Shown here one piece after another: positions 1 through 19,255 of a stretch of 19,255 nt of DNA. Every line of letters starts with the position of its first letter. The first letter of the stretch is position 1. The notes under the pieces are model-generated. The model was not told where the DNA came from, searched no databases, and worked only from the letters and a program-made list of their open reading frames with translations. Origin of the DNA: a virus; the IMG/VR virus record IMGVR_UViG_3300037515_000038, positions 1-19,255 of that record, one strand, 5' to 3'. Both the position numbers and the translations under genes were made by a program.

Positions 1-127
1 CTGACCGAGTCCACCAACGCTGTCGAAAAGACCTTCGGTGACGCAGCCGAAGCCATCCTCGACATCGGTAGGAACTCTGCCGAGAGTTTTGGGTTGTCGA
101 AGGCCGAGTTCAACTCCTTTGCCGTCT
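1..127. repeat. Terminal direct repeat, identical to 19129..19255. This is the assembly overlap of a circular or circularly permuted genome with a 19,128-bp unit.
   Basis: Base-by-base comparison: 1..127 (ctgaccgagtccaccaacgc...ctcctttgccgtct) equals 19129..19255 with no mismatch. Confidence 0.95.
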
Positions 128-1584
128 CCATGGCCGGGTTCGCCAAGAACATCGCCGGAGAGGGCGGGAGCATTGTCGAGGTCACCGAGAAACTCATCCA
201 GAGGGCTGCCGACTTCGCCTCGGTCCACAACATCGAGGTAGCCGACGCCCTCGGTATCTTCCAGTCCACCCTGGCCGGTCAGACCGAGCCGATACGCCGA
301 TACGGTAAGGACATCTCCGATGCAGCCATCAAGCTGTTCGCCTTGGAGACGGGGATCATCGACACCAAGCGGGAGATGACCGAAGGCGAGAAGCAGACCG
401 CCCGTTACGGGCTGTTGCTCCGTGAGACCGAAGACTGGGCTGGTGACTTCGCTGACACCGCTGGCGAGCTTGCCAACCAACAGCGGATAGCCAACGCCGA
501 GTTGGAGGACGCCAAAGCCAAGCTGGGTGAGAAGCTGGCCCCCGTCGTGTTGGAGGTCACACAGCTTTTCAGAGACTTCATCAATGTTCTGGGCGAACTC
601 CTCGATCTGCTTCCAGGAGTGGACGTGGGGATCATGGACATCGTCGAGGCCATCGTCCCCTTCGGCCAACAGATTGGTTGGGCCAAGGACCGGCTTGGGG
701 ATTGGAGCGACTCGATTGATGAGAACAACGAGAAGGAAGCCAAAGCCGAAACTCTCACCAAGCAGTGGACCCGTGCCCATGAGGCGATGCGGGGGGAACT
801 GGTCGAAGGTCGTCCCCCACTCCAAAGACACACTGAGGCTGTCGAAGACGCCACTGACGCCACCGAAGAACTCGCTGAGGAGACCCAGACCGCTGCCGAT
901 GCCATTCGGGATGTCCAGTCTGCTGCCCGTGAGGCTGTCGACCCGGTGTTCGCCTACATGCAGGGCACCCAGGAGCTAGCCGATGCTCAGGCTGCCTACA
1001 ACGCTGCTGTGGACGAGTTCGGGGTGAACAGCCCTGAGGCCATCCAGGCAGCCGAGGACATTGCCAGGGCCAACGGGAAAATCCAGGAGGCGGTGACCGA
1101 CATCGGTGAAGTGGGGGTGCCTGCTGCTATGGCAGCCCTCAAGTCGCTGGGTGTCCCCCAGGCGGTCATTGACAAGTTCGCTGCCGACAAGAAGCGCATC
1201 GAAGAAATCTTCCGCAACATGGTCCTCAGGATCGGTGTGTCGGCTCCGACCCTGTATCCGACCTCACCGTCCTCGGGAGGCGTTGGGTGGAAGTCAGAAT
1301 CCAGGAACTACTACGCCCACGGTGGTATCGCCAAGGCCCGTCCTGGTGGTGTCGATGTGGCTGCTGAGGCCGGGTCTGACGAGGCGATGATCCCCATGAA
1401 CTCGGAGGGGATCGGGATTCTGGCTGCCGCCATGAAGGAGGCCATCGGCGGGGGAGGCCAGGCGATCAACCTAATCGTCCCGGCGTCACGGTCCACCGCC
1501 ATCGACGGGTGGGACATCATCGAGATGCTCCAGAAGATCGAACAGTCGTCAGGGCCGCTTCCGATCAGGGTGAGGCAAGGCTGA
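1..1584 (+). CDS. Tail tape measure protein, 3' portion. The 5' portion is 18928..19255. The joined gene is 1785 nt, about 594 aa.
   Basis: Frame 1 is open from base 1 to the TGA at 1582..1584. It is in frame with ATG 18928 through the 127-bp overlap (201 nt, divisible by 3). The product is long, helical and Ala/Glu/Leu-rich with a TP901-type tape-measure core-like segment (SVHNIEVADALGIFQSTLAG...). It lies upstream of the minor tail genes. Confidence 0.85.
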   Translation: MTESTNAVEKTFGDAAEAILDIGRNSAESFGLSKAEFNSFAVSMAGFAKNIAGEGGSIVEVTEKLIQRAADFASVHNIEVADALGIFQSTLAGQTEPIRRYGKDISDAAIKLFALETGIIDTKREMTEGEKQTARYGLLLRETEDWAGDFADTAGELANQQRIANAELEDAKAKLGEKLAPVVLEVTQLFRDFINVLGELLDLLPGVDVGIMDIVEAIVPFGQQIGWAKDRLGDWSDSIDENNEKEAKAETLTKQWTRAHEAMRGELVEGRPPLQRHTEAVEDATDATEELAEETQTAADAIRDVQSAAREAVDPVFAYMQGTQELADAQAAYNAAVDEFGVNSPEAIQAAEDIARANGKIQEAVTDIGEVGVPAAMAALKSLGVPQAVIDKFAADKKRIEEIFRNMVLRIGVSAPTLYPTSPSSGGVGWKSESRNYYAHGGIAKARPGGVDVAAEAGSDEAMIPMNSEGIGILAAAMKEAIGGGGQAINLIVPASRSTAIDGWDIIEMLQKIEQSSGPLPIRVRQG

Positions 1585-2294
1585 TGCAGGCTATCTACCC
1601 CGGTCATGTGCTCGGAGGCTCCCCCCTCTATGTGGGGTTGACCCTCGGGGACATCCTCTACTTCGACGCCGATGACACCTTCGACTATCCCGACTACCCA
1701 GGGTTGAGGGCTGTTCGTGTGAAGGTTCAAGCTGGTGGGGCTGCCGGTGGGGGAGCGGCCACCACGGGGGCTTCTCAGTCGTCTGGAGGTAACGGTGGGG
1801 CTGGCGGAGGCTATTCAGAGAAGCTGATACTGGTTACAGCCCTGTCCCCCTCTGAGACGGTCACAGTGGGGGCTGGTGGGTCAGGAGTGGCCGGGGGGAC
1901 GGGAGGCGCTGGAGGGGCATCTTCTTTCGGCTCACACCTGTCAGCGTCGGGTGGTCTCGGCGGGGGAGTGGCAGGAGCGTCAGGCACCCTAACAGCGGGT
2001 GCCCCCTCGAACTCGGGTGGGGGAGTGGGAAGTGGTGGTGACCTGAACCTGGTTGGGTCTCCCGGTGGGGCGGTGCTGAGATACATAGCGACTAGGGTGC
2101 TCGGCGGGAGAGGGGCACACAGTCAACTGGGTGTGGGTGGAGTGGAAGGCTCGTCTACTTCCAGCACCAACGGCAACCCAGGCCGGGGATACGGGAGCGG
2201 CGGGTCAGGTGGCACCAACTCTCAGAACCAGGCGGGCACCGCTACTGGCGGGGGTGGAACGCCCGGCCTGATCATCGTGGAGCTTCTCTATTGA
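1584..2294 (+). CDS. Glycine-rich domain minor tail protein (236 aa)
   Basis: ATG 1584 overlaps the tape-measure stop (ATGA). The sequence VRVKVQAGGAAGGGA...GGNGGAGGGYSE...VTVGAGGSG...GGAGGASSFG...ASGGLGG matches the pattern of phage glycine-rich tail-fibre domains. GC3 is high. Confidence 0.7.
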   Translation: MQAIYPGHVLGGSPLYVGLTLGDILYFDADDTFDYPDYPGLRAVRVKVQAGGAAGGGAATTGASQSSGGNGGAGGGYSEKLILVTALSPSETVTVGAGGSGVAGGTGGAGGASSFGSHLSASGGLGGGVAGASGTLTAGAPSNSGGGVGSGGDLNLVGSPGGAVLRYIATRVLGGRGAHSQLGVGGVEGSSTSSTNGNPGRGYGSGGSGGTNSQNQAGTATGGGGTPGLIIVELLY

Positions 2295-4864: not shown

Positions 4865-4874
4865 GAGGCCCTAA

Positions 4875-5801
4875 ATGCCTGAGATCATTGATGTAGTCGA
4901 CAGCGAAGACCTGGCTGTTGCCGAGTGGGCCAACGCCATCAGGGACCGCACCGTCCAACGCTACAACGACCTGTCCACCCGCACCACCGAGCACGCCACA
5001 CCGGCTGCTGGGGACCTCAGCTTCCTCGAAGACTCGGGGGCTTTGGAGGTCTACTTCGGAGGCTCATGGAGAGGTCTGCTGCCCACCGGGGCTGTCATCG
5101 CCCATGCGGGGACCACAGCGCCGTCTGGGTGGCTACTCGCCAACGGTGCCGAGGTATCCAGGACAACCTATGCCGCCCTGTTCGCTGTCATCGGGACAGT
5201 GTTCGGGGTTGGTGACGGCTCGACCACGTTCAACCTGCCCAACCTGAAACAGAGGTTCCCGCTGGGGAAGGCCGACTCGGGCACCGGAGCGGCGGTGGGA
5301 GCTACTGGTGGTGCGATCGATCATGTTCATTCGGGGCCTTCGCACACCCACACCGGGCCGTCGCACACCCACACGATGGGCACCCACACCCATTCCAACC
5401 CGAGCACAGCAGCGAATGGCTCCCACGCCCACTTCATCGACGGGGGTGCCACCGCATCGGGGGGAAGCCACACCCACTCGTTCTCCGACTCGTTCACTAC
5501 TGGTGGCGGGTCAGGCACGACCTCCAAGGAGGGGGGAGCGTTCCTGGCTTCCGTTCCGGCTCACACCCACACGGGTTCAGTGTCAGGGACGACCGGCTCG
5601 GGAGGTTCGCACACCCACGGGCCGGGAACCCTGGACACCGACTCGGCAGGGAGCCACACCCACACTCAGGGGGTTACCGGGGCCACCGATCCTGGAGACA
5701 CCAACGCTGCGGGCACTGGGGCTACTGGTGCGGGGGGAACCGGGAGCACAGGCACCCAGAACCCACCGTTCCTGACCCTGCTGTTCATAGTCAAGATATG
5801 A
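4875..5801 (+). CDS. Tail fibre protein with a phage tail-collar domain and a His-rich HxH-repeat C-terminal shaft (308 aa)
   Basis: AGGAGG lies about 10 nt upstream of the ATG. The collar motif is PTGAVIAHAGTTAPSGWLLANGAEVSRTTYAALFAVIGTVFGVGDGSTTFNLPNLKQRFPLG. It is followed by nine HxH motifs (HVH, HTH x7, HAH). Confidence 0.8.
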   Translation: MPEIIDVVDSEDLAVAEWANAIRDRTVQRYNDLSTRTTEHATPAAGDLSFLEDSGALEVYFGGSWRGLLPTGAVIAHAGTTAPSGWLLANGAEVSRTTYAALFAVIGTVFGVGDGSTTFNLPNLKQRFPLGKADSGTGAAVGATGGAIDHVHSGPSHTHTGPSHTHTMGTHTHSNPSTAANGSHAHFIDGGATASGGSHTHSFSDSFTTGGGSGTTSKEGGAFLASVPAHTHTGSVSGTTGSGGSHTHGPGTLDTDSAGSHTHTQGVTGATDPGDTNAAGTGATGAGGTGSTGTQNPPFLTLLFIVKI

Positions 5802-5811
5802 GGAGAACACC

Positions 5812-6042
5812 ATGACTACACCAGCCGAACTGACCGTCAACGAGGCAGCCGACTACCTGAAGATCACACCCGAGGAGTTGGTCTTCTCCCGTGCTCGGGG
5901 TCTGCCACCAGGGAAGGTGGGCTACACCAGGGGAGGGCAGTTGTTCTTCCGCAAGGTGGACCTGATCCCACCGAAGCCCACCAAGAAGCCTAAGCCTCAA
6001 GTAGAGGTTGAGACCAACCCTCAACCAGTGGTTGAAGGTTAG
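5812..6042 (+). CDS. Helix-turn-helix (excisionase/MerR-like HTH_17-type) DNA-binding protein with a Lys/Pro-rich tail (76 aa)
   Basis: GAGGAG lies upstream of the ATG. The pattern LTVNEAADYLKITPEELVFSRARGLPPGKVGY...FFRKVDL fits HTH_17-type domains. Confidence 0.6.
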   Translation: MTTPAELTVNEAADYLKITPEELVFSRARGLPPGKVGYTRGGQLFFRKVDLIPPKPTKKPKPQVEVETNPQPVVEG

Positions 6043-6043
6043 G

Positions 6044-6208
6044 ATGGAGAGCGCAATGACCAACATCGCACACCAAGACGACTTCAAGGTCGAAGCCTAC
6101 GGCACGTTCACACCACCACCCGTCTCGTGCGGGGGTGCTGAGTGCTACTGGGTGGAGACCGACACCGGGTGGGAGACCATCCATTCAACAGACTGTGAGG
6201 AAAACTGA
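6044..6208 (+). CDS. Small hypothetical protein (54 aa, 3 Cys)
   Basis: ATG 6044 lies 2 nt after the upstream stop. Its stop overlaps the next ATG (ATGA at 6205..6208). GC3 is high. The start choice is uncertain. Confidence 0.4.
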   Translation: MESAMTNIAHQDDFKVEAYGTFTPPPVSCGGAECYWVETDTGWETIHSTDCEEN

Positions 6209-6600
6209 TGTCCCTCGGATACGCCGTAGCCCTACGCAACGCACAACTCGACGAGATCACCGCCAGGGCTGGAGCCTCGGCCCTGCTCAAGATTTTCTCG
6301 GGGACACGGCCCGCCACAGGGGGAGCAGAGACCACCCAGCTATCCGAGCAGGTGTGCAACGCCACCTTTGCTCCAGCAGCTTCCGGTGGGGTGCTCACCC
6401 TCAACGCCATTGCCGACGATGCGGCTGCTGACGCCACCGGGACTGCATCCTGGTTCAGGATCGAGTCAGCCGCTGCCGCCCATGCGATGGACGGTGATGT
6501 TGCCGTGTCAGGTGCAGACCTGAACTTCGACTCGATCAACTTCGTGGCTGGCGGTGTGGTTGCGGTCACATCGTTTGTCATCAACTGCGGCAACGCTTGA
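6208..6600 (+). CDS. Hypothetical Ala/Gly-rich protein (130 aa), probably structural
   Basis: It is translationally coupled on its 5' side, has strong GC3 bias, and lies within the tail-fibre region. I recognise no family. Confidence 0.6.
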   Translation: MSLGYAVALRNAQLDEITARAGASALLKIFSGTRPATGGAETTQLSEQVCNATFAPAASGGVLTLNAIADDAAADATGTASWFRIESAAAAHAMDGDVAVSGADLNFDSINFVAGGVVAVTSFVINCGNA

Positions 6601-6601
6601 T

Positions 6602-6865
6602 GTGTCGCTCTGCACTGGTCGGGGGTCGCTAAGAGGGCAGCACTGCTGTTTCGTCAACGGGCTGGTCTGCCAATACCTGGAGTTGGGGACCGTCCCTGGA
6701 CGCACGTTCGTCTGCGGGTTGAGACGCCAACTCGGCTCGTGGGAGGCCGTCCACGCTGACCCCGGCTACATCGAGAACGTGCAACGGTTTTGGGATGTCC
6801 ACCCCAATATCACATCGTGTGGCGACTGGCAGCCGGAACCTGGCATGTGTTGTAGGGAGACCTGA
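6602..6865 (+). CDS. Small Cys-rich hypothetical protein (87 aa, 8 Cys)
   Basis: GTG 6602 lies 2 nt after the upstream stop. The TGA at 6863..6865 overlaps the next ATG. Third-position G/C is about as strong as in neighbouring genes. The start is uncertain because the ORF is open from 6554. Confidence 0.45.
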   Translation: MSLCTGRGSLRGQHCCFVNGLVCQYLELGTVPGRTFVCGLRRQLGSWEAVHADPGYIENVQRFWDVHPNITSCGDWQPEPGMCCRET

Positions 6866-8430
6866 TGGCAACCCTGAACACCCTCGCCCTCGGCACTTTC
6901 ACCAACGGTAATGACACGGCGATCACCGGGGCTGAGCCGGTCCTCCAAGAGATCGCCTCCGCCGACGACGCCAAGAACGTCCACGACACTGCCAATACAA
7001 CCCACACCGGGATAGCCAAGTTCACCCTTGAGAATGTGAACTCGGACCTGGGCAACATGGACACCCTGTTCATTCGGCTCCGCTACGCCAACTCGAACAC
7101 TCCAGTCAACAACACGTGGGATTCGCTAAGAGCACATGTCTTCAAGTCTGATGGGGTCACCGGGCTAGCAGGCGGGACTTCGCTTTCGGTGGACCGGGTG
7201 GTAGCCACCGATATCACCGCCACCATCCCGACCAACTCAGCAGTTGTCAACTTCATCGCAGTAGACACCGCGGCGACGAAGGACGACTGGGATGGGGCGA
7301 TCGTCGAAGTCAAGTTTTACATCACCAAGAGCATGGCCGGTGACGCCATCGAAGAACGGGTGTTCGCCGCTGAGATCACCGGCACCTACACGCCCGCATC
7401 CAACACTTTCACCGGCTCGGCCAACGTCACCCAAGACGACAACACGTCCGATGCTGCTGGGACGCACACTCCACCCACGTTCACCGGGTCAGCCTCCGAA
7501 ACCCAGGATGACAACACCGCTGACGCTTCGGGGACGTTCACCCCTCCGACGTTCACCGCCACAGCAGCACCCACACAGGAGGACAACACTTCGGCAGCCA
7601 CAGGGACGTTCGTTGTTGGCCCGGTGTCGGGGTCAGCCAACGCCACCCAAGACGACAACACGTCCGAGGCTGCTGGCACTCACACACCACCAACGTTCAC
7701 CGGCAGCGCAGCACCAACCCAAGACGACCAGACCTCGACCGCCACAGGCACCTTCACCGACCCTGTCTACACCGGGGAAGCCTCACCAACCCAAGACGAC
7801 AACACGTCTACAGCCACCGGCACGTTTGTCCCTGGCACTCTCACCGGGTCGGCTGATGCCACTCAGGATGACAACACGGCTACTGCGGTCGGGACTCACA
7901 CACCACCAACATTCACCGGTTCAGTGTCGGTCACCCAGGACGATCAGACTTCGAGCACGACAGCCACGTTCACCGACCCTGTCTACACCGGGTCGGGGGC
8001 TTCGAGCCAGGAGGACAACACATCCACAGCCACCGGCACGTTCACTGCTTCTGAACGGACGGGTTCTGGAGCGCCAACCCAAGACGACAACACTGCTGTT
8101 GGCGCTGGCACGTTTGTCCCGCCTGGCTTCACCGGTTCTTTGGCAGCCGTCCAGGATGACAACCTTGTCGTCGCAGCAGGCACGTTCAGCCTCCCCACCT
8201 TCACCGGGTCAGGCTCTCCCGTCCAAGAGGACAACACGTCGGTTGCTACTGGCACTCACACGACAGACACGATCGCCGGGTCAGCAGCTATCACCCAGGA
8301 CGATCAGGTGCTGGTTGGTGTGGGCACGTTCGCCTGGAACCTCCAGGTTGCCGAGTTCGACGTGCCCTACACGAGACAGTTCATAGGCCGGTTCCCCAAG
8401 TATCCGCTGGTCGACCCGGACAACCGATGA
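6865..8430 (+). CDS. Repeat protein (521 aa): a unique 181-aa N-terminal domain, 13 tandem 24-aa Thr/Ser/Asp-rich repeats, and a short C-terminal tail
   Basis: The ORF is coupled at both ends (ATGA overlaps at 6865 and 8427). The repeat consensus is FTGSa..TQDDNTS.A.GT(F/H)TPPT. Confidence 0.8.
   Translation: MATLNTLALGTFTNGNDTAITGAEPVLQEIASADDAKNVHDTANTTHTGIAKFTLENVNSDLGNMDTLFIRLRYANSNTPVNNTWDSLRAHVFKSDGVTGLAGGTSLSVDRVVATDITATIPTNSAVVNFIAVDTAATKDDWDGAIVEVKFYITKSMAGDAIEERVFAAEITGTYTPASNTFTGSANVTQDDNTSDAAGTHTPPTFTGSASETQDDNTADASGTFTPPTFTATAAPTQEDNTSAATGTFVVGPVSGSANATQDDNTSEAAGTHTPPTFTGSAAPTQDDQTSTATGTFTDPVYTGEASPTQDDNTSTATGTFVPGTLTGSADATQDDNTATAVGTHTPPTFTGSVSVTQDDQTSSTTATFTDPVYTGSGASSQEDNTSTATGTFTASERTGSGAPTQDDNTAVGAGTFVPPGFTGSLAAVQDDNLVVAAGTFSLPTFTGSGSPVQEDNTSVATGTHTTDTIAGSAAITQDDQVLVGVGTFAWNLQVAEFDVPYTRQFIGRFPKYPLVDPDNR
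7408..8343 (+). repeat. 13 x 72-bp in-frame tandem repeat
   Basis: Units start at 7408 + 72n. Unit 13 starts at 8272 (atcgccggg...). Units 1-9 show a 3-unit super-period: GTHTPPT / GTFT.P. / GTFV.... Confidence 0.95.
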
Positions 8431-9008
8431 ACGGTGCCCTGGCTTCATGGTGTCGTGAACCCACCCCGGTGGGGGAGGAGACCTGGACCCCGTGGGGGGA
8501 AGGCTGGTATGCGTGGTCGTCACCCTCACCCGAGGTCGAGTTCTGCGAGTTCGTCGGTGCTCTCGTCCGTCTCCTCCGTCCTCGTCTGGTTGTCGAGACA
8601 GGGGTGGGAGCCGGGTATGTGACCAGACGGATCATCGCTGGCCTCGGGTCGGGGTCTTGGATCGGGTTCGAGTCCGACGACGGATACCGTGCCGAAGGTC
8701 GTCGCCTCCCCTGGCCTGAGGACCTCACCCTCTCATCCGAGGTATCCCCAGCCTCGGCGGATATGGCTGCTGCCGACCTGGTGGTGTTGGATTCCGCACC
8801 CGAATACCGGCTCACCGAGTTCGACCTGTGGCGTGAGCATGGGAAGCCATCCTCGGTCCTGGTGTGCCATGACGTGTCGTCTCGGCATCAACCGTCACCA
8901 CGCAACTCGAAGGTCCACATCCCCTTCTACAACCACATCAGCACGTCAGGGTTGACCGGGGTGTTCCTGACCAACCCTCGTGGCGCATGGATGGGACAGC
9001 ACCCGTGA
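8427..9008 (+). CDS. Class I SAM-dependent methyltransferase-like protein (193 aa; Methyltransf_24 / O-methyltransferase-like)
   Basis: ATGA overlap at the start. There is a motif I-like segment LVVETGVGAGYVT, a later acidic strand DLVVLDS, and then SVLVCHD. This layout is typical of the family. Confidence 0.55.
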   Translation: MNGALASWCREPTPVGEETWTPWGEGWYAWSSPSPEVEFCEFVGALVRLLRPRLVVETGVGAGYVTRRIIAGLGSGSWIGFESDDGYRAEGRRLPWPEDLTLSSEVSPASADMAAADLVVLDSAPEYRLTEFDLWREHGKPSSVLVCHDVSSRHQPSPRNSKVHIPFYNHISTSGLTGVFLTNPRGAWMGQHP

Positions 9009-9715
9009 ACGTGGTCATACCTGTAGGGCCGAACCGGGCAGACACTCTCCGCTGGGTGTTGAGGACCATCCACCAGCATCTGGCTGTGGACCGGGTGGTG
9101 ATCGTCGGGGACATCCCCGGCTGGGTGCGAGGAGTAGAAACCCTCAGCGTCTCCCAACACCGGGATCGGGCCACCAACCACCGTGCCAACATCGAGGCGG
9201 TCCTCGACCACGATCTCGAAGACTTCGTCTGGTGGGACGACGACCATTTCATCCTCGAAGACCGGGACACCATCCCCCTCTACAACGCCGGGTTCGTGTC
9301 CACCTACCTGGCAGCCAAGAAGTCTCAGATGAGGGCGCTGGCAGCACCAGGGGAGTATCAGCGGGCTTTCCAAATGTGCTTCGGCCTGTGCTCAGAGTGG
9401 GGTTATGACGATGTCCTGATGCCTCCACACGTCCCTATGCCCGTAGAGAAGGCGTCCCTGGCCTCCCTGGTCTCCGACACCGACAGATCGGGCCTCGACC
9501 GTAAGGAGATGATGTGGGCGGTGTGGAAGGCCGCATACCTGACCCGTGTGGTCTCCCCTGAGAACTCGACCCACCTTGCCGACCCGAGGCACCGTCACCT
9601 TGACAATCCTGACAGCCCGACAGACGGGTTCTGGGCGACAACAGCCAACCTGTGGACGACCAACACCTGGATCAAAGACCGATACTGGCGTCCATCACCC
9701 TACGAGGCCACCTGA
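9005..9715 (+). CDS. Glycosyltransferase-like protein (236 aa; GT-A fold / Stealth-CR2-like with a DDD motif)
   Basis: GTG 9005 overlaps the upstream stop (GTGA). The segment NVVIPVGPNRADTLRWVLRTIHQHL..DRVVIVGD, followed by DFVWWDDDHFIL, resembles the first strand, helix, second strand and DXD motif of GT-A enzymes. The ORF track start at 8987 is an alternative. Confidence 0.45.
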   Translation: MNVVIPVGPNRADTLRWVLRTIHQHLAVDRVVIVGDIPGWVRGVETLSVSQHRDRATNHRANIEAVLDHDLEDFVWWDDDHFILEDRDTIPLYNAGFVSTYLAAKKSQMRALAAPGEYQRAFQMCFGLCSEWGYDDVLMPPHVPMPVEKASLASLVSDTDRSGLDRKEMMWAVWKAAYLTRVVSPENSTHLADPRHRHLDNPDSPTDGFWATTANLWTTNTWIKDRYWRPSPYEAT

Positions 9716-9975
9716 TGGAAAACTTCCTCTACACTGCTGCTGCGATCGTCGCGTTGGCCGCAGCCCTGAAAGCAACGTTCTACCTGATCGCCAAACTCCG
9801 TCAGACCGGCAAGCTGATGGAGGCGTTGTTCGAGTTGACAAGGGAGGACGACTGGCCCAACGGTGCCGAATCCCTCCAAGCCTCCCATCAGGAACTCTAC
9901 GACAAGGTGTCCAGCATCGAGACTTCCATCAAGGAACTACAGACGGCTGTGGAGCAGGTGCTGACCGGTCGGTAG
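9715..9975 (+). CDS. Small membrane protein (86 aa): one N-terminal TM helix plus a coiled-coil tail. This is a holin-like candidate and the last gene of the long operon.
   Basis: ATG 9715 overlaps the upstream stop (ATGA). FLYTAAAIVALAAALKATFYLIA is a hydrophobic helix. The C-terminus is charged and helical. Confidence 0.6.
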   Translation: MENFLYTAAAIVALAAALKATFYLIAKLRQTGKLMEALFELTREDDWPNGAESLQASHQELYDKVSSIETSIKELQTAVEQVLTGR

Positions 9976-9984
9976 ACATTCATG

Positions 9985-10398
9985 CGAACGTTCAAGCTTC
10001 CTCCCATCCTTCACCCAGCGAACCGCGAGCGTAGCGAGCACGGGAAGAGGGGAGAAACCGGTAGCTGCCCTTGGCAGCGGTAGGTGTCGACCTCTTAACA
10101 TGAAGGTCAGGTGCATATCCTTAGGGGGTTCTCGCTGCGAAATGCCTGGTGACAGACTTTGTACGAATAACGGTCTTATGTGGGCTACCGCCTGCCCTGG
10201 TTAGTGGCTTCTCCTATTGTCCTGAGCCTGCCCGATGCCAGGGGCTTCGTTCGCCCGAACGTTTATGGCGGCGCGCTAAGACGTTGGGAGAGAGGGGAAA
10301 GAGTGCTATTCTTTCGATCGACGATCACCATCATCAGAGAGTAACACCCCTTCGGGGGTGTTCTCTCGTCTCAACCCTTTTTCTTTCAGACGAACGTT
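9985..10398. promoter_or_regulatory. Three dispersed exact copies of CGAACGTT in the large non-coding region (9985..9992, 10256..10263, 10391..10398)
   Basis: Read directly from the sequence. The first copy lies inside the palindrome GAACGTTC. Confidence 0.55.
10343..10387 (+). terminator. Candidate intrinsic terminator or stable RNA hairpin with a C(UUCG)G tetraloop
   Basis: A perfect 8-bp stem joins AACACCCC (10343..10350) and GGGGTGTT (10355..10362) around the loop TTCG. A T-rich run (tttttcttt) begins about 15 nt downstream. Confidence 0.4.
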
Positions 10399-10595
10399 TG
10401 AGGACCCTTGGGTGGTATGCTCGGCCCATATTCGCCCGAGGTCATTCTTGGCCATCCTTCTAAATATGGGCGGATCGGCACTCCTCTTCCTGTCACCGCA
10501 TTTGGGGGAGTGCTACCCAAGTGGGTGCCACTATGGTGCCACTCTTTGAGCGTTATTCAAGAAGTAGCTGAGAGCGGCTTGCCCCTCAAATCATG

Positions 10596-10604
10596 TGATA
10601 AGAT
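10596..10604 (+). promoter_or_regulatory. Candidate extended -10 promoter (TGATAAGAT), giving a leaderless or near-leaderless mRNA for the HTH gene
   Basis: TGnTAAGAT ends 8 nt before ATG 10613. There is no Shine-Dalgarno sequence before that ATG. The tandem GGTGCCACT repeat lies upstream. Confidence 0.35.
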
Positions 10605-10612
10605 CCCCATCC

Positions 10613-10816
10613 ATGACAGAGCTACTCGACCCGAGACAAGTGGCAGACCTCCTGGGGGTCACCGTGCAGCGTCTCGCTAACTGGCGCTACCGAGGGCGAG
10701 GACCGAACTACATCAAGCTCGGCTACCGGTCCATCCGCTACCAGCGAGCCGATGTGGAGCAGTGGCTGGCCGAGCACACCATCCGCGCAGAGGACCACCC
10801 GAAGGTGCTATCGTGA
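10613..10816 (+). CDS. Helix-turn-helix DNA-binding protein (67 aa; excisionase/AlpA-like HTH_17). Candidate early regulator.
   Basis: The sequence LLDPRQVADLLGVTVQRLANWRYRGRGPNYIKLGYRSIRYQRADVEQWL is a classic HTH_17 pattern. The ORF is also open from GTG 10595. Confidence 0.75.
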   Translation: MTELLDPRQVADLLGVTVQRLANWRYRGRGPNYIKLGYRSIRYQRADVEQWLAEHTIRAEDHPKVLS

Positions 10817-10886
10817 GATCACCACAACCTGACATAACGTGGATTAGGCACCAACATCAGGCACTTAACCCACGGGATTGGCTTCT

Positions 10887-11177
10887 ATGCGCTCTGAGCT
10901 TCACAGCGTTCTCGCGGACATCGTCTCCGCTCGAATCCACCTGGACGCCGTCAAAGACCGGGCCATCATCGAAATGCGTCAAGGCCACCGTCCCACCTAC
11001 CGTGGCCACGAGTGGGGGAGAGACCAGTTCGACGCGCTCGAACAGGTCGGCTATGCGGTCGAAGCAGCATTCTCCCTGCTCAAAGCCCTCCAGTTCCCTG
11101 AGACTCAAAGCTCACGGCTCGAAGACGCCCGCATCATGCTTGACTCCCTCGACACGCCAGCCCAGCTTTCCTCATAG
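10887..11177 (+). CDS. Hypothetical helical protein (96 aa)
   Basis: GC3 is strong in this frame. The overlapping 175-aa ORF (10762..11289) has an off-frame-like Ser/Pro/Thr/Arg composition. The alternative TTG start is at 10878. Confidence 0.6.
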   Translation: MRSELHSVLADIVSARIHLDAVKDRAIIEMRQGHRPTYRGHEWGRDQFDALEQVGYAVEAAFSLLKALQFPETQSSRLEDARIMLDSLDTPAQLSS

Positions 11178-11210
11178 CCCAGGCAGGGTAAAACCCGCCA
11201 CCCTGTCATT

Positions 11211-11262
11211 CGAACATTGCAACGTTCGCTCGAACGTTCCATTCACTCCTTATTCGAACGTT
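11211..11262. promoter_or_regulatory. Cluster of four CGAACGTT-type sites: 11211 degenerate CGAACATT, 11221 reverse copy AACGTTCG, 11231 exact, 11255 exact
   Basis: Read directly from the 104-bp intergenic gap between 11177 and 11282. Confidence 0.6.
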
Positions 11263-11281
11263 TACCGGGGGGAGGCCCAAC

Positions 11282-11632
11282 ATGGCTAGGAGACACGGAT
11301 TCGCACGGATAGGACGCCGACGCCCTGAATGGGACATCTGGCAGGCGATGGTCCAACGCTGCACCAACCCCAACCACAAGGAGTACCCCCGGTATGGAGG
11401 CCGCGGCATCACCGTATGCGACCGCTGGACCGAACCTGACGGAGACGGTTTCCTCAACTTCCTCTACGACATGGGGTCCAGGCCCGCCAACCCTGAAGGC
11501 TGGAGTCACCGCCTCGCGTACTGGACGCTCGACCGGATCGACAACGACGGCCACTACGAGCCAGGCAACGTCCGCTGGGCTACCTGGTCCCAGCAGGCGT
11601 TCAACCGGCGTCCAAAGACGGTGACAGCATGA
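11282..11632 (+). CDS. HNH-like (His-Me finger variant) DNA-binding/endonuclease-family protein (116 aa)
   Basis: GGAGG lies 6 nt upstream. The segment YPRYGGRGITVCDRW...FLNFLYDMGSRP...LDRIDNDGHYEPGNVRWATWSQQAFNRR matches a family widely annotated as HNH endonuclease in actinophages. Confidence 0.65.
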   Translation: MARRHGFARIGRRRPEWDIWQAMVQRCTNPNHKEYPRYGGRGITVCDRWTEPDGDGFLNFLYDMGSRPANPEGWSHRLAYWTLDRIDNDGHYEPGNVRWATWSQQAFNRRPKTVTA

Positions 11633-11850
11633 CCTACCGCATCGACAACGATGGACCTCATCCTCTTATCGCAGCCGCTATCAGGATCGCCGCGGATGGG
11701 CCATTCTCGCCACCCAAAGCCTCCAAACGTGCCCTCATAGACCGTGCCCTGATAGACGACCTCAGACACCAACTCGACCGGGCGGGCTACGCCGACCACT
11801 GGCGGGACCTGGCCTACGACCTCCGAATCCAAGAAAGAACCACCCCGTGA
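11629..11850 (+). CDS. Hypothetical protein (73 aa)
   Basis: ATGA overlap with the upstream gene, and high GC3. Confidence 0.55.
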   Translation: MTYRIDNDGPHPLIAAAIRIAADGPFSPPKASKRALIDRALIDDLRHQLDRAGYADHWRDLAYDLRIQERTTP

Positions 11851-11933
11851 ACCCTGACCCCTATTCGAACCTCATCCCCTGGATCATGGTCAGCATCATC
11901 TGGCTCATCGTCATTGTGAGGCTCGCCACATGA
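11847..11933 (+). CDS. Possible 28-aa hydrophobic micro-protein (VNPDPYSNLIPWIMVSIIWLIVIVRLAT)
   Basis: GTG 11847 overlaps the upstream stop (GTGA). Its TGA at 11931..11933 overlaps the next ATG (ATGA). It fills an otherwise empty 79-bp gap. An internal ATG is at 11886. Confidence 0.25.
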   Translation: MNPDPYSNLIPWIMVSIIWLIVIVRLAT

Positions 11934-12118
11934 AAGTCGATGTCGTCTTCAAGGACGGTCGGGACTTCGGCTCAGAGGTCGACGGCTACGCCATAGGAGA
12001 TCCTCCAGGGTTCATCCAAGTCGTCTACTCCGACGTTGTGAAGTTCTACCCGGTAGACCTGATCGACCATGTGACCGTTCCCAACCTGCACGCCAAACTC
12101 ACAGAGGAGACACCATGA
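11930..12118 (+). CDS. Hypothetical protein (62 aa)
   Basis: ORF with GC3 bias and an ATGA overlap with the downstream gene. Confidence 0.55.
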   Translation: MKVDVVFKDGRDFGSEVDGYAIGDPPGFIQVVYSDVVKFYPVDLIDHVTVPNLHAKLTEETP

Positions 12119-12378
12119 TCAAGACACAACGAACCAGATTGACCGTCATAGCAGTAGTGTTCGGCGTGTTGGTGATGCTGCTGGCTGCCGCTCCCGATGT
12201 AGCGCCCAGCACACCTCAGACACCCTCCAATCCAGAAGCCTGTGATACGGCCCTCACCAACCATGAACTCACCGTCGACCGGATAGACATAGCCAAAGCT
12301 CAGGGGGACACCACTGAAGCCAGACGCCTGGAGGCCATCAGGAAAGCTGCATACGCTCACATCCAGGCCAACTGTTGA
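12115..12378 (+). CDS. Membrane-anchored or secreted small protein (87 aa)
   Basis: GAGGAG lies upstream. The N-terminus KTQRTRLTVIAVVFGVLVMLLAAAP is a signal-anchor-like helix. Confidence 0.6.
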   Translation: MIKTQRTRLTVIAVVFGVLVMLLAAAPDVAPSTPQTPSNPEACDTALTNHELTVDRIDIAKAQGDTTEARRLEAIRKAAYAHIQANC

Positions 12379-12632
12379 CCCGCCTCATATCCCCCCTATC
12401 CCCCCCCATGAGACGTGAATATGACAAGAGGCTCTACAGACGCAACCGCAAGCTCCTCCTCTCCACACGCCCCAGATGCGTCCTATGCCCCGCACCTGCC
12501 AAGACAGCAGACCACATCATCCCGGTCAGCAAAGGCGGGACATCGGCCCTATCCAACCTCAGACCAGTCTGTGTTCCCTGCAACTCATCACGAGGAAACA
12601 GGACCAGAACACGAGAGTCACACCCATACTGA
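12375..12632 (+). CDS. HNH endonuclease, terminase-associated position (85 aa from TTG 12375, or 74 aa from ATG 12408)
   Basis: The sequence CVLCPAPAKTADHIIPVSKGGTSALSNLRPVCVPCNSSRGNR is a canonical HNH/His-Me motif with Cys pairs. The gene lies directly upstream of the large terminase. Confidence 0.85.
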   Translation: MTRLISPLSPPMRREYDKRLYRRNRKLLLSTRPRCVLCPAPAKTADHIIPVSKGGTSALSNLRPVCVPCNSSRGNRTRTRESHPY

Positions 12633-12697
12633 ACCGGATGCCGTTTTTTTGATATGAGCCACCCCGACCACCCTGCCCCCCGTTTTCGTTTAGGTAT

Positions 12698-14179
12698 ATG
12701 AGCACTCGATCCCTCCCTACTAAGAGCACACGGTCTCGTGCCCGCACTCGGTTCGAGACGAAGCCGACCAAGGGGTCGAAGACCTGGACCCAGGACCTGA
12801 TCCGCATGGCCGACGAGTTGGGGACGCCTCTGATGCCGTGGCAGAAGAAGGGTGCCCGTCTGCTCGGTGAGCTTCGGGATGAGTGGTGCATCTGCCATGA
12901 CCCGCCTCGTCTGCTGCCCCGATACAAGACGGTGGTGGTCTCGGTGTGCCGCCAGCAGGGGAAGACGGTCCTGGCGCGGGTGGCGATCAGCACCAAGGCT
13001 GAGTCGGAGTGGGACCTGAAGATGTATGGGACGGCTCAGTCCCGCCAGTATGCGGCCCGCCATGTGGTCTCTCTGGGAGATTTCCTCCAGCAGACGGACC
13101 CTCTGTTGACGGTGAAGCGGGGTGTGGGAAACGAGGTTGTCGAATGGGAGAACGGCTCCACCTATCTGCCTATCTCCCCGACCGAAGGTGGCGGGCATGG
13201 TGACTCGATCGACTTTCTCCTGGTGGACGAGGGCTGGGCGGTGTCCGCTGTCACCTTGGGAGGCGTGGTTCCCGCCATGACCGCTCGACCCCACTCGCAA
13301 CTGCTCGCCATCTCGACTATGGGCACCGTCGACTCGGAAGTGTGGAACGGGATCGTCACCCAGGGCCGTGAGGCTGTGGACGACTCAGGTTCGGACATCG
13401 CCTACATCGAATATTCGGCTCCGTCAGATGAGGCTGTCTTTGATGAGTCACAGTGGCACACCTGGATGCCCGCCTTGGGGATCACCGTCTCCTACGACGA
13501 CATCCGCTCGGCCATGAAGCTCCTGGAGGCTGCCGAGGGCCGCAACGAAGTGGTGAGAGCCTTCGGGAACCGGACGGTGAAAACACTGGTGACCGTGTTC
13601 CCCGGCGACTACGTGGAGAAGGCATGGAGGGTAATCGACCCGCCCGACAGATTCGTGTTGGCAGTAGACATCAACGACGAGCCTGCCGGGGCTGCTGTCG
13701 CCACCGGGCATCTCGGGGAGGTTGACGGTGTGGTGGGTGGTGCGGTTCGGATCATCGAAGCCCGCTACGGGACGCCACGGTGGCTGCCCTCCTACGTCGA
13801 GGGGGTGCTCAGGAGTCGTGAGGTTGAGGCTGTCGTGGGTGACTTCGGCGGTCCTGCCCGTGAGGTCAAAGCGGAGCTAACAGCCATCTGTGAGGAGAAC
13901 CTGGTGCCTCTCATCGACCGGGTGCCCCGAGACCTGGCAGCCGACACCCGACGCTTCTACGACGGCCTCAGAGAAGGCACCGTCTACCTGAACAAGTCCG
14001 AATTCCTGGCCGAAGCGTTGGCAGGAGCAAGACGGAAAGACTTCTCCGACACCGGGCTGTGGGTGGTATCCCGTGGCCGCATGTCGGTCGACGCCTCCCC
14101 ACTGATCGCAGCGATCATGGCCCACGGGCTGGCGACGGAATTGTCGGTGTCACCCAAGGTCGAGTTCTTCGTCTATTGA
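12698..14179 (+). CDS. terL: Terminase large subunit (493 aa)
   Basis: Walker A-like VCRQQGKTV and Walker B-like DFLLVDEGW are present, followed by a C-terminal nuclease-type region. The gene lies upstream of the portal. Confidence 0.9.
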   Translation: MSTRSLPTKSTRSRARTRFETKPTKGSKTWTQDLIRMADELGTPLMPWQKKGARLLGELRDEWCICHDPPRLLPRYKTVVVSVCRQQGKTVLARVAISTKAESEWDLKMYGTAQSRQYAARHVVSLGDFLQQTDPLLTVKRGVGNEVVEWENGSTYLPISPTEGGGHGDSIDFLLVDEGWAVSAVTLGGVVPAMTARPHSQLLAISTMGTVDSEVWNGIVTQGREAVDDSGSDIAYIEYSAPSDEAVFDESQWHTWMPALGITVSYDDIRSAMKLLEAAEGRNEVVRAFGNRTVKTLVTVFPGDYVEKAWRVIDPPDRFVLAVDINDEPAGAAVATGHLGEVDGVVGGAVRIIEARYGTPRWLPSYVEGVLRSREVEAVVGDFGGPAREVKAELTAICEENLVPLIDRVPRDLAADTRRFYDGLREGTVYLNKSEFLAEALAGARRKDFSDTGLWVVSRGRMSVDASPLIAAIMAHGLATELSVSPKVEFFVY

Positions 14180-14226
14180 GAGCCGAGACAACCCTCAACC
14201 TCAACTAGAGGGTTATACTGTGGGAC

Positions 14227-15423
14227 GTGCAGATAGCAGGTCGCGAAATTCGTTGGTCTGAACCCTCCCTCCAACAGAGGTCGCTGGATCAGGTGACCGA
14301 CATCAACGTGGCGTTCACTGAGATGCAGAACAGTCTGCTCGGGTTGACCGAGAACTCGGTGCCGTCCGTGTTCCGTGCCCGCCAGTTCCTCTCCGACACG
14401 GTGGCCTCCCTCCATATGGATGAACTCCAGGGGAAGATCATCGTTGAGGACCCGTCTCCGATCATCACCGACCCTGACCCGACGATCACCTACCACGAGT
14501 TCATGGCCCAGGTGATGCTCTCCCTTCTCGACAACGGCAACGCCTATCTGTGGATCAAGACCCGAGACCAGTTGGGCAACCCCAAGTCGGCCTACGTCTG
14601 TGACCCGCTGGAGGTCAACGTCAATTGGGACAGGCAACGGTTGTATCGCCGCTACTCGTGGCGGGACCAGACCATGACCCCTGACGAGGACTTCCTTCAC
14701 ATCGCCATCAACCGTGGACCGGGCAAGTTGAAGGGGATGGGACCGATCGAAGCTGCCCGCACCACCACCATCCAGACGGCCAAGGCCGAGGAGGAGATGG
14801 CCCGAACACTGGCCGAGGACAACTACACGCCGTCGCTGGTCATCAAGTCCCCGGAGGTCAAGACGGCAGTAGACGCAGAGCGAGTCCTCAATATTTGGAT
14901 GGGTGCCCGAGACTCCAACGGTGGGGGTCGCAAACGCCCTTCGGTAGCCAACACTCTCACCGAGTTCGACCAACTCACCATCAACCCGGTTGACGCCCAA
15001 TGGATCGAATCCCGAGACTTCACCGTCCAGCAGATCGGCAGGCTGTTCGGCATCCACGGGTTCTTCCTCCTGGTCGAGTCGGGGTCGTCTCTCACCTACT
15101 CCACCACCGAGTCGCTGTTCCGTCTCCTGTTGACCGCCACCCTCAGACCCACCTACCTGGAGAGGATCGAACAGGCCATGTCGAGGCTTCTCCCCAGGGG
15201 AAGGATCGCCCGTTTCAACACCGATGAGATTCTCCGTGCCGACATCCTGTCTCGCTACGGGGCGTACCAGATCGGCACCGGGAACCGTGGCTTCCTCGCC
15301 GTCAACGAAGTCCGTGAGGATGAGGGACTTCCTCCGATTCCTGGAGGGGATGAGCTAATCGTTCCCTCTACCACGGAGCCTGCCCCTGTTCCTGCCCCTT
15401 CTCTGAATGGAGCATCAGCATGA
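14227..15423 (+). CDS. Portal protein, HK97 family (398 aa, GTG start)
   Basis: Motifs resemble HK97-type portals: LLDNGNAYLWI, FLHIA, KGMGPIEAAR and WIESRDFTVQQIGRLFGI. Size and position also fit. Confidence 0.9.
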   Translation: MQIAGREIRWSEPSLQQRSLDQVTDINVAFTEMQNSLLGLTENSVPSVFRARQFLSDTVASLHMDELQGKIIVEDPSPIITDPDPTITYHEFMAQVMLSLLDNGNAYLWIKTRDQLGNPKSAYVCDPLEVNVNWDRQRLYRRYSWRDQTMTPDEDFLHIAINRGPGKLKGMGPIEAARTTTIQTAKAEEEMARTLAEDNYTPSLVIKSPEVKTAVDAERVLNIWMGARDSNGGGRKRPSVANTLTEFDQLTINPVDAQWIESRDFTVQQIGRLFGIHGFFLLVESGSSLTYSTTESLFRLLLTATLRPTYLERIEQAMSRLLPRGRIARFNTDEILRADILSRYGAYQIGTGNRGFLAVNEVREDEGLPPIPGGDELIVPSTTEPAPVPAPSLNGASA

Positions 15424-17108
15424 CCGACAGATCTAGAGACGACCAAGGCCGGTTCCTCCCCGACGCCGTCTACCCCGACGAGGAGATGGCTCTGGAGGTC
15501 AGGGACTTCGAGCGCCGGGAGATCGTCGCCCGTTTGCTCCCTTACAACGAGCCGATCCTGGTCCGTGGAAGGCCAGAGTCGTTTGTGAGGGGTGCTGTGG
15601 CGGGCATCGACCCCACGTCGATCAAGCTGCTCTCCTTCCACGACCAGCGCCGTCCCATCGGCAAGAGCGTCGAGTTGGAGGAGCGAGACGACGGAGCCTA
15701 CGTCCGATTCCGCATCTCGAAGACCACCGAAGGCGACGAGATGCTCGAACTCGCCAACGACGGGGTCCTCTCCATCTCCCCAGGCTTCATCCCAGGCGTC
15801 CAGAACCAACAGGGTGTTCATCAGAGGTTGAAGGCCCTACCCGAAGCGTCCTTGGTGACCTTCGCTGCATACAGCGGAGCCAAGGTCCTGTCCGTAAGAG
15901 AAAAGGAGGCCGCAATGGCCGACAACAAGCCCACAACCGAACCTGTCGAGGAGCCAGCCGTGCAGACGGTTGACCTCGGCCCCATTGAGACACGTCTGAA
16001 GGACCTCTCGACCCAGATCGAGACCCTCCAGTCGGTGGTCGATGCCCCAGCCCGCAACCTGCCAGCCGGTGGTCCCACACCGTTCGACTGGTTCATGGCG
16101 CAGATGGAGGAAAGACTCCAGCCTCGCTCCATGCAGTATCGGGAAGCCCTCGATGAGAAGTGGGAGAACTTCCAGACCCGAGCCAAGGAGGGGACACTCC
16201 AGACCCGTGCCCTAGCCGACATCACTGGTGGGCAGACCCAGGCCGGTGACAACGACCCAGCCGACGACCTGTCGGGTCTCGTGGTCGAGGAGTATCTCGC
16301 CTCTCAACTGGTGAGCATCCTTGACCGGAGACGGCCACTGTTCGCCAGCTTCGGCTCGTTCCCGTCACCCCGTTCTGGTTACGCCCGCATCCCGGTCGTC
16401 ACCCAGCACGTCACGGTGGCTGCCCGCACCGCCCAGAAGACGGAGCCGACCAGCCAGAAGATGATCCTGAAGACCGAGCCGTTCGAGGCGAAATGGTTGG
16501 ACGGAGCACTCGACGTGGCTATCGAGGTCACCCAGATGGCCGAGCTTCCCGTCATGGAGATGGTGTGGGAGGACCTGAGAGGCGCATACGCCGCAGCCAC
16601 CGAGCACGATGTCACCAACGGTGCCGTGCCCTGGTTCGAGGCTGGTGCCCTCGGGTTCACCTACACGGGCACAGCCCTCGACACTGCCACCTACGCCGGG
16701 TTCATAGCCGACGTGGAGGAGCAGATCGACACCATCGAAGATGCGGCCGGGGAGCCTCCCAGCGTCCTGGCCGTCACCCGTGCCCAATGGCGGGTCCTGG
16801 TGGCGATGGTCGACGCCAACGACCGGAGACTGTTCTCCACGATCAACCCTCAGAACGCTGACGCCTCGGTGGGTCTCACCGCCCGGTCGTTCAGCCTTCC
16901 CGGTGGGATCGAAGTGTTCAAGGTGAAGGGTCTCACCCAGGCAGCCCTCTACGGGCCGTCTGCCCTCCGTGCCACCGACTACGGCCCGTCACGGGTCGAA
17001 GCGACCAACGTGGCCCTGATGGGTCGGGACATCGGCATCCTCGGACGGACCATGCTGGTCAACCGAATCCCTGCCGGTGTCGTTGTGTTCGGAACCGAAC
17101 CGTCCTGA
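15420..17108 (+). CDS. Fusion of prohead (HK97/S78-type) protease, a scaffold-like linker and the major capsid protein (562 aa)
   Basis: The N-terminal 150 aa or so resemble the HK97 protease (LLSFHDQRRPIGKS..., GVLSISPGF). A coiled-coil linker follows (ETRLKDLSTQIETLQSV). The C-terminal 300 aa or so are HK97-fold capsid-like. No stop separates them. An in-frame internal SD plus ATG is at 15903..15917. Confidence 0.8.
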   Translation: MTDRSRDDQGRFLPDAVYPDEEMALEVRDFERREIVARLLPYNEPILVRGRPESFVRGAVAGIDPTSIKLLSFHDQRRPIGKSVELEERDDGAYVRFRISKTTEGDEMLELANDGVLSISPGFIPGVQNQQGVHQRLKALPEASLVTFAAYSGAKVLSVREKEAAMADNKPTTEPVEEPAVQTVDLGPIETRLKDLSTQIETLQSVVDAPARNLPAGGPTPFDWFMAQMEERLQPRSMQYREALDEKWENFQTRAKEGTLQTRALADITGGQTQAGDNDPADDLSGLVVEEYLASQLVSILDRRRPLFASFGSFPSPRSGYARIPVVTQHVTVAARTAQKTEPTSQKMILKTEPFEAKWLDGALDVAIEVTQMAELPVMEMVWEDLRGAYAAATEHDVTNGAVPWFEAGALGFTYTGTALDTATYAGFIADVEEQIDTIEDAAGEPPSVLAVTRAQWRVLVAMVDANDRRLFSTINPQNADASVGLTARSFSLPGGIEVFKVKGLTQAALYGPSALRATDYGPSRVEATNVALMGRDIGILGRTMLVNRIPAGVVVFGTEPS

Positions 17109-18251: not shown

Positions 18252-18257
18252 TCCTGA

Positions 18258-18928: not shown

Positions 18929-19255
18929 TGGCTTCCAACGTTGTCCGTGTCTCGATCCTGGCTGACGCCAAGTCTCTAGAACAACAACTCCGAGGAGCAG
19001 GCAAGGAAGCCCAAGCCTTCGGGGATCGTATGGGGTTGATGGGCAAGGCGGTTGTCGCTGCTGTTGCCATCAAAGCCCTCAGTGCTGTCAAAGACTTCGT
19101 CAGTGGGTCGGTTGACGCCTACAAAGATCTGACCGAGTCCACCAACGCTGTCGAAAAGACCTTCGGTGACGCAGCCGAAGCCATCCTCGACATCGGTAGG
19201 AACTCTGCCGAGAGTTTTGGGTTGTCGAAGGCCGAGTTCAACTCCTTTGCCGTCT
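18928..19255 (+). CDS. Tail tape measure protein, 5' portion. It continues at base 128 of the window via the circular junction.
   Basis: ATG 18928 opens an ORF that runs off the window end. Its last 127 nt duplicate 1..127, in frame with the ORF ending at 1584. Confidence 0.85.
   Translation, partial: MASNVVRVSILADAKSLEQQLRGAGKEAQAFGDRMGLMGKAVVAAVAIKALSAVKDFVSGSVDAYKDLTESTNAVEKTFGDAAEAILDIGRNSAESFGLSKAEFNSFAV
19129..19255. repeat. Second copy of the 127-bp terminal overlap
   Basis: Identical to 1..127. Confidence 0.95.

Follow-up and report, generated by a model that had tools for sequence, protein, structure and literature searches.

The neck whiskers of Shigella phage Sf14 (gp30/gp31; PDB entry 9C39) and fibre I of the Ralstonia podophage GP4 (gp80; PF23140; 8JOU) each involve a small protein of ~110–140 amino acids (aa), and Agrobacterium phage 7-7-1 has a small fibre-associated accessory protein (9RKV chain A). 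The triple beta-spiral of adenovirus and reovirus, reportedly described by van Raaij et al. in 1999, is said to have a repeat of 15 residues. Here we compare with these systems a gene of the IMG/VR virus record IMGVR_UViG_3300037515_000038, of which positions 1 to 19,255, the whole stretch of DNA that was analysed, are called the window below. The gene (hereafter the target) encodes a 521-aa protein made of an N-terminal domain (N-domain), thirteen tandem 24-aa repeats and a short tail, and it belongs to a compact cassette with three smaller open reading frames (ORFs). We interpret its product as a virion-surface accessory fibre, either a whisker or a side fibre, of a soil-type, 19.1-kb actinophage-like siphovirus, with a probability of about 0.6. 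An earlier interpretation made from the letters alone (hereafter the sequence-only reading) had proposed a fibre-like surface protein among other options, and this is the option best backed by gene synteny, modular architecture and predicted structure. The parts of the target and the other cassette genes are located as follows:

6865..8430, plus strand: target gene, 521 aa, ATG start; putative accessory fibre or whisker protein
6865..7407, plus strand: N-terminal module of the target, aa 1–181 (homology core aa 1–178); presumed docking or anchor domain
7408..8343, plus strand: repeat array of the target, 13 × 24 aa, consensus FTGSAxxTQDDNTSxAxGTFTPPT
8344..8427, plus strand: C-terminal tail of the target, 28 aa, non-repeat, QVAEFDVPYTRQFIGRFPKYPLVDPDNR
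6602..6865, plus strand: 8-Cys ORF, 87 aa, GTG start, uncalled
6208..6600, plus strand: p130, 130 aa, phrog_3758 'virion structural protein' (PHROG E-value 8e-25)
6044..6208, plus strand: 4-Cys ORF, 54 aa, with a YGTFTPPP motif and a G+C content at third codon positions (GC3) of 0.72

Of all the evidence, that from the neighbouring genes is the most informative. Related loci repeat one gene order: a small ORF, p130 or p122, a Cys-rich ORF and the N-domain gene. In relatives of 36–45 kb (L013, L005 and L014), this cassette lies between the genes for the major capsid protein (MCP) and the head-tail adaptor (in L013: MCP, p104, p77, p130, Cys ORF, N-domain gene, adaptor), and in the window it directly follows the Collar tail-fibre gene. 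Because the relatives carry it at a head-module site and the window at a site after the tail fibre, the cassette appears to be portable between structural modules. Start and stop codons of successive genes in the window overlap or abut (at 6600/6602, 6865, and 8427–8430), which is an operon signal; a scan of the cassette for promoters and terminators returned nothing above chance.

The 8-Cys ORF fills the 264-bp gap between p130 and the target, with its GTG 2 nt past the p130 stop and its own stop overlapping the target ATG, and it is translationally coupled to both neighbours. In all loci for which upstream sequence is available (>20, from IMG/VR and other sources) it immediately precedes the N-domain gene, and repeat proteins without the N-domain have no such ORF before them. 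It has eight conserved Cys, one conserved His and a GC3 of 0.75. Pairwise differences amount to 0.365, 0.342 and 0.611 at the first, second and third codon positions, respectively, with 4,283 synonymous codon differences; because the third position thus exceeds the other two, and because so many of the differences are synonymous, the ORF is, as judged from these comparisons, protein-coding. Gene callers skipped it in L001–L003 and L005, and it has no match in Pfam, in PHROG or, by tblastn of its consensus, among the cultured phages of INPHARED. The 4-Cys ORF at the upstream end of the cassette was called as a gene in L001–L003 and has homologs of 46–47 aa just upstream of p130 in L006, L007 and L013. 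Its YGTFTPPP motif resembles the repeat linker TGTFTPPT of the target, which may or may not be meaningful.

The cassette is connected to solved virion structures through p130, whose family comprises 3,501 unannotated database matches (the best 120 at 64–98 per cent identity). A profile of the family (alignment A4) retrieved from the PDB chain 44nx_B, a 'Structural protein' of 147 aa that is the nearest solved homolog of p130 (E-value 7.6e-13), and 9rkv_A (3e-3). The AlphaFold2 (AF2) model of p130, with a predicted local distance difference test score (pLDDT) of 69, matches the same chain 9rkv_A (E-value 8e-6, probability 1.0, template modelling [TM] score 0.60, 24 per cent identity), and it also matches 9c39_K (probability 0.99, TMt 0.62) and the Bas63 connector chain 9mt4_L. 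Agrobacterium phage 7-7-1 is the source of the tail-fibre complex in entry 9rkv, and Shigella phage Sf14 that of the neck whisker in 9c39 (PMC12796354, PMC11821841). From its size and the text of the paper, chain A of 9rkv is probably the small homodimeric 'garland' protein of PMC12796354. Modelled in this way, p130 belongs to a small family with a whisker- or garland-like fold: its AF2 model shares the fold of 9C39, and 8jou is absent among the matches listed. The p130 sequence has no match to PF23140 even at E ≤ 1. In L005, the equivalent slot is occupied by a 122-aa member of that very family, 'Podophage GP4 fiber I protein gp80' (1.4e-25, 90.5 bits vs. a cut-off of 27 bits), which matches both 8jou and 9c39 by sequence. 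Mycobacteriophage Charlie (gp24) and Vibrio phage CKB-S1 have p130 homologs that carry the annotation 'virion structural protein'.

The p130 protein is also far more conserved than its neighbours, with 79–82 per cent identity between phages that have wholly different adjacent fibre genes, and its relatives are spread over prophages of several bacterial phyla. Many loci have p130 upstream of an N-domain fibre or a repeat fibre. With the p130 alignment we gathered 52 loci from bacterial genomes of several phyla (L036–L087), situated in prophage-like regions of Nitrosospira, Ralstonia, Massilia, Nocardioidaceae and others, where large variable proteins come after p130, a periodicity of 21–24 aa being seen in many of them. 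Prophages of the isolates Nitrosospira sp. Nsp11 and Ralstonia sp. 25C have p130 with a fibre gene after it. The pair of Cys-rich ORF and N-domain gene is absent from all of these loci. Since they combine p130 and variable proteins without the two genes, it seems that a fibre can be coupled to p130 in several alternative ways.

The target itself is modular. Its relatives at E ≤ 1e-3 in an exhaustive search of representatives number 634, all metagenomic and unannotated, and 201 relatives were collected; a word-indexed search with the N-domain alone returned 7 proteins only. The N-domain, which the sequence-only reading had taken to be unique, turned out to be a common module: it is present in 86 of the 201 collected proteins, nearly always at the extreme N-terminus. 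What follows it varies. Among 89 N-domain proteins, two have shafts of the type seen in the target, 24 have other periodic shafts (20–24 aa), 45 have non-periodic C-termini, and 18 consist of the N-domain only. Conversely, the target's type of repeat (at least three units) occurs in 37 proteins, with the N-domain in only two of them, and many of those without it have LamG domains. Phage fibres usually join a variable distal part to a conserved anchor in this manner. In the N-domain alignment (A3), N44, R73, W85, W142, G159, G173 and Y175 are invariant. The domain has no Pfam match, and the PDB matches of its profile, antibody VH domains, were discarded as spurious.

An AF2 monomer model, built from a 45-sequence alignment and with strands assigned by DSSP, places a jelly-roll beta-sandwich at residues ~41–175, most of it at a pLDDT of ~90. 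Foldseek returned only generic jelly-rolls for this domain (best E-value 2e-3, root-mean-square deviation [rmsd] 6–9 Å), among them CBM35, CBM16, CBM4, MAM domains and the projection domain of infectious bursal disease virus (IBDV) VP2. Structure matches in a viral library, to CenC-like and CBM96-annotated proteins, were weak (8e-6 to 4e-5, with very high rmsd). We rejected all specific fold assignments, among them those to IBDV VP2, Cry toxins and carbohydrate-binding modules (CBMs). In the repeats, the model predicts one beta-hairpin per unit, with a strand at unit positions 1–8, the QDDNT turn, a second strand at 14–20 and the TPPT linker.

In the unit consensus, the apolar or small residues F1, G3, A5, A16, G18 and F/H20 alternate with Thr and Ser; because of this alternation, each hairpin unit would have one buried face and one hydroxyl-rich, exposed face. 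When the units were examined for the features of a shaft, F1/G3/A5 and A16/G18/F20 were found to be conserved, with two strands predicted per unit. Ser and Thr make up 33 per cent of the repeats, the repeat region contains 36 Asp and Glu but a single Lys or Arg, and the whole protein has a computed isoelectric point of 4.05.

Thirteen in-frame 72-bp units at 7408..8343 had been claimed from the letters alone, and their coordinates are exactly right. Tandem Repeats Finder independently gives periods of 72 and 216 bp, and the lag-24 autocorrelation of the amino acids is 0.535, compared with 0.113 ± 0.017 in 2000 shuffled sequences (z = 24). Q9, D11 and T19 are invariant (13/13 units) and position 20 is F or H in 13/13, which bears out the invariant-like cores QDDNT and GT(F/H) of the sequence-only reading; D/E10 and N/Q12 are likewise found in 13/13 units, and G3 and G18 in 12/13 each. 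The proposed super-period of three units was recovered in units 1–9, where DNA identity is 0.70 at lag 3 vs. 0.58–0.59 at lags 1 and 2, and the autocorrelation of the protein is 0.65 at lag 72 vs. 0.56 at lag 24; units 1–9 form three 72-aa super-repeats. The array also decays toward the C-terminus as described, units 10–13 being more divergent and unit 13 only 29–50 per cent identical to the others. That units 10–13 might be terminal caps kept among homologs is borne out only in part: the terminal units of P0001 and P0013 have the unusual hydrophobic signatures seen in units 11 and 13, which is suggestive only, but BLAST shows no preferred placement of units 10–13 at the C-termini of homologs. 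The C-terminal tail is not conserved: homologs have different tails, and its only match is an identical fragment (P0077).

Two further claims about the array, recent expansion and variation in copy number, were not supported. Units three apart are merely 71–83 per cent identical in DNA, which does not fit a recent expansion. An ancient, family-wide super-period was rejected as well, since the lag-72 excess is strong in the target alone among 58 proteins with 24-aa periodicity; because of this specificity, a duplication of a three-unit block in the lineage of the target, not recent, is likely. One relative, P0005, has the linker triad of the target. As for copy number, five independent assemblies from different samples are 100 per cent identical over 6001..9800; four of the five contigs were fetched by exact protein match, a procedure blind to other copy numbers, and the assemblies are built from short reads, which minor variants in repeat number could escape.

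The expectation that the repeat belongs to no known characterised family was upheld. The repeat region has no Pfam match at E ≤ 5 (nor do five relatives, apart from their LamG domains), the target has no match in NCBIfam and none at E ≤ 1 in a PDB sequence search, and the sole PHROG match of the repeat region is to phrog_22803, a family of unknown function (E-value 6.5e-5). No 24-residue repeat of a phage fibre turned up in literature searches. The frame in which the repeats are read is supported by base composition: GC3 is 0.72 in the frame of 6865..8430 and 0.55, the lowest value, in an overlapping 364-aa ORF at 7292..8386 (plus strand), which runs in another frame inside the repeat array. 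On the basis of this difference we favour the target frame and reject the overlapping ORF, whose product is rich in Pro, Arg and Thr and which is most likely a by-product of repeat composition and no gene.

If the target is an accessory fibre, its N-terminal jelly-roll would dock the protein on the particle, probably through the co-encoded p130 and 8-Cys proteins, the latter acting as a metal- or disulfide-stabilised adaptor or as an assembly factor. The thirteen amphipathic hairpins would form an extended, very acidic shaft faced with Thr and Ser, and the short C-terminal tail would end it. Mounted on the virion in this way, at the neck or at the baseplate, the fibre might adhere reversibly to the host envelope or to surrounding polymers and thereby raise the chance of productive tail contact.

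Several observations weigh against this interpretation. The link of p130 to the PF23140 type of protein is by fold and position only (pairwise E-value 0.03 against the L005 protein), and the solved homologs of p130 occupy differing sites on the virion, the neck in Sf14 and the baseplate region in 7-7-1; therefore, the site of attachment is not assignable from p130. Neither the N-domain nor the repeat nor the Cys ORF occurs in any cultured phage of INPHARED. The pLDDT of the monomer model is only 50–66 in the repeats and below 50 at residues 441–521, and because of the low values in the repeats, the model does not fix the geometry of the fibre or its oligomeric state; as a monomer model it also does not separate a beta-solenoid from a multimeric fibre. 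Moreover, the likeness of the N-domain to carbohydrate-binding modules is as good as any other, and the domain could be the binding end instead of the anchor, and the target has no globular C-terminal domain for receptor binding.

The genome around the cassette is small for a tailed phage. Bases 1..127 of the window are identical to 19129..19255 (127 bp), and the window therefore represents a complete circular or terminally redundant genome of 19,128 bp, with a G+C content of 61 per cent. Its first part encodes, in order, the tape measure, a Gly-rich protein, an 857-aa LamG protein, the Collar tail fibre, small genes and the target, which is followed by two enzyme-like ORFs, HNH, the large terminase, the portal, the capsid protein, and head-tail and tail genes. 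Identity of its large terminase to those of actinobacteriophages with small genomes (including Rhodococcus phage RRH1, Gordonia phage GRU3, and Arthrobacter and Microbacterium phages) reaches 32 per cent at most, and the host is probably an actinobacterium. Neither megablast of the whole window nor tblastn of the target found a match among the annotated phages of INPHARED; the repeats may have been masked by the low-complexity filter of BLAST in the latter search, in which the N-domain likewise had no match.

The two enzyme-like ORFs downstream of the target are:

8427..9008, plus strand: methyltransferase (MTase)-like ORF, Pfam Methyltransf_24 (E-value 4e-4, 21.6 bits, below the 26.3-bit cut-off)
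8987..9715, plus strand: glycosyltransferase (GT)-like ORF, phrog_7999 (unknown function; 5e-23)

The ATG of the MTase-like ORF overlaps the stop of the target (ATGA, 8427–8430). Gene callers place its start differently, giving products of 193 or 81 aa from identical DNA, and an apparent disruption of the gene in some contigs was dismissed as this difference in gene calling. In the GT-like ORF, aa 15–93 (79 aa) weakly match a glycosyltransferase family (phrog_1579, 0.003); the ORF has no match in Pfam, NCBIfam or the PDB, and its homologs in Mycobacterium, Microbacterium and Gordonia phages are labelled 'hypothetical'. Neither ORF adjoins any of the >25 homologous cassettes, and whether the two are part of the system is uncertain.

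The position of the cassette, directly after the tape measure, Gly-rich, LamG and Collar genes, would also suit a true tail-tip or baseplate fibre, that is, the primary receptor-binding protein needed for infection. We regard this as unlikely, since most related phages have the cassette in the head module (from capsid to head-tail adaptor), and the genome is already equipped with a LamG tail protein and a Collar fibre. Homologs of p130 do end the minor-tail block in Charlie and follow the baseplate genes in CKB-S1, p130 has its closest structural counterpart in the baseplate tail-fibre complex of 7-7-1, and related repeat proteins often have LamG domains, like tail proteins. However, the target is without a globular C-terminal domain, and the free swapping of the fibre part, together with the 18 of 89 N-domain proteins that are shaftless, suggests a dispensable accessory. 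The acidity of the repeat region and the constancy of its turn (Q9 and D11 invariant, D/E10 and N/Q12 in every unit) would be in keeping with an RTX-like, Ca2+-binding beta-solenoid in which each QDDNT turn coordinates calcium; the sequence-only reading had considered a beta-solenoid and Ca2+ binding by the turns. Yet the wider repeat family has TEAADTS, TQADQTS, SPALTMSGSG or SVTATASG at the position of the acidic turn; no GGxGxD-type or other known Ca2+ motif is present, nor any Pfam match even at E ≤ 5; and the AF2 model, at low confidence, has hairpins in place of a solenoid with ion-binding turns. Such a solenoid is very improbable, and calcium binding by the turns is unsupported.

Some mycobacteriophages O-glycosylate capsid and tail-tube proteins with phage-encoded glycosyltransferases. 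The target could be a mucin-like scaffold whose Ser and Thr residues are O-glycosylated, and perhaps methylated, by the two downstream enzymes to give the virion a glycan coat. The Ser and Thr content of the repeats, the translational coupling of the MTase-like and GT-like ORFs to the target through ATGA and their weak matches to Methyltransf_24 and a glycosyltransferase PHROG speak for such a scaffold, but neither enzyme assignment reaches its curated threshold or is backed by the PDB or NCBIfam. The Ser and Thr residues, moreover, stand at fixed, conserved positions in predicted strands and not in disordered sequence, and the enzyme genes are missing beside the homologous cassettes. We therefore consider the scaffold rather improbable. 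O-glycosylation is compatible with the accessory-fibre model as an add-on to it, not as a replacement, and as such is weakly supported.

Beyond the accessory-fibre reading of the target alone, all four genes (the 4-Cys ORF, p130, the 8-Cys ORF and the N-domain gene) may constitute a portable 'plug-in fibre' cassette of an undescribed kind, a broader proposal that we put forward tentatively and hold to be somewhat doubtful. Under this proposal, the Cys-rich proteins would be adaptors locked by metal or disulfides, phages of several bacterial phyla would use a conserved docking protein to attach shafts that can be exchanged, and either gene module, head or tail, could receive the cassette. If this is true, the 24-aa hairpin shaft with its ladder of Thr would be a new fibrous fold.

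Three other features of the genome were noted in passing. The Collar-domain tail fibre (4875..5801, plus strand) contains short His/Thr-rich repeats, HSGPSHTHTGPSHTHTMGTHTHS, seen as a 21-bp tandem repeat, especially at 5334..5374, and this stretch could be metal-binding. No recognisable endolysin was seen in the 19.1-kb genome, and the region from the GT-like ORF to the terminase (9715..12700) has small ORFs only, including putative membrane, HTH and HNH proteins; lysis may depend on novel genes or on some of the unassigned ORFs. The capsid gene (15420..17108, plus strand) encodes a 562-aa product with a weak Phage_capsid match, and between portal and capsid we see no gene for a separate protease or scaffold. 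By analogy to other very small actinophages, the capsid product may be a fusion protein.

Accessory fibres and whiskers shape how phages find their hosts, and they are almost uncharacterised in siphophages of soil Actinomycetota. The repeat family has more than 600 relatives, and the p130 family has more than 3,500 members and is highly conserved. If the cassette is a swappable fibre mount, it would be useful for the annotation of metagenomic phages, for host-range engineering and for surface display; if the target is an ordinary accessory fibre, the gain would be a better annotation of four unnamed gene families.

Phages commonly have fibre proteins rich in repeats, and the kind of object described here is known. 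Related to the target in sequence are phage proteins from metagenomic contigs (P0002, P0018, P0039 and P0125, for example) that join LamG/ConA-like domains to the same 24-aa repeats (E-values 1e-64 to 1e-16). They differ from the target in having a LamG domain (PF13385), in mostly lacking the N-domain and in having no preceding Cys ORF (L006, L007), and they are unannotated. The target has no match, by sequence or by Foldseek, to any solved shaft. In layout it is like the triple beta-spiral, with short repeats of two strands and a turn, an apolar pattern, Gly/Pro turns and a shaft behind an N-terminal attachment region, but its period is 24 aa (often 11 + 13 in relatives) instead of 15.

The best structural match of p130, the small protein of phage 7-7-1, is situated at the baseplate of a 247-kb myovirus, unlike the present phage. 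The likeness to Sf14 and GP4 extends to gene arrangement: a small protein is encoded beside its partner in a structural block and builds or anchors a side fibre of the virion. In contrast to those systems, the N-domain/24-aa-repeat and 8-Cys proteins are without a match in PDB sequence searches, in which the deposited chains of Sf14 and GP4 are covered, and the long repeat shaft is specific to the target family. New here are a repeat family without a database model, the recognition of the N-domain as a common and presumably docking module, an obligately linked, uncalled 8-Cys gene, and the connection of such a locus to the p130 family, which is very large and has whisker or garland components as its solved relatives.

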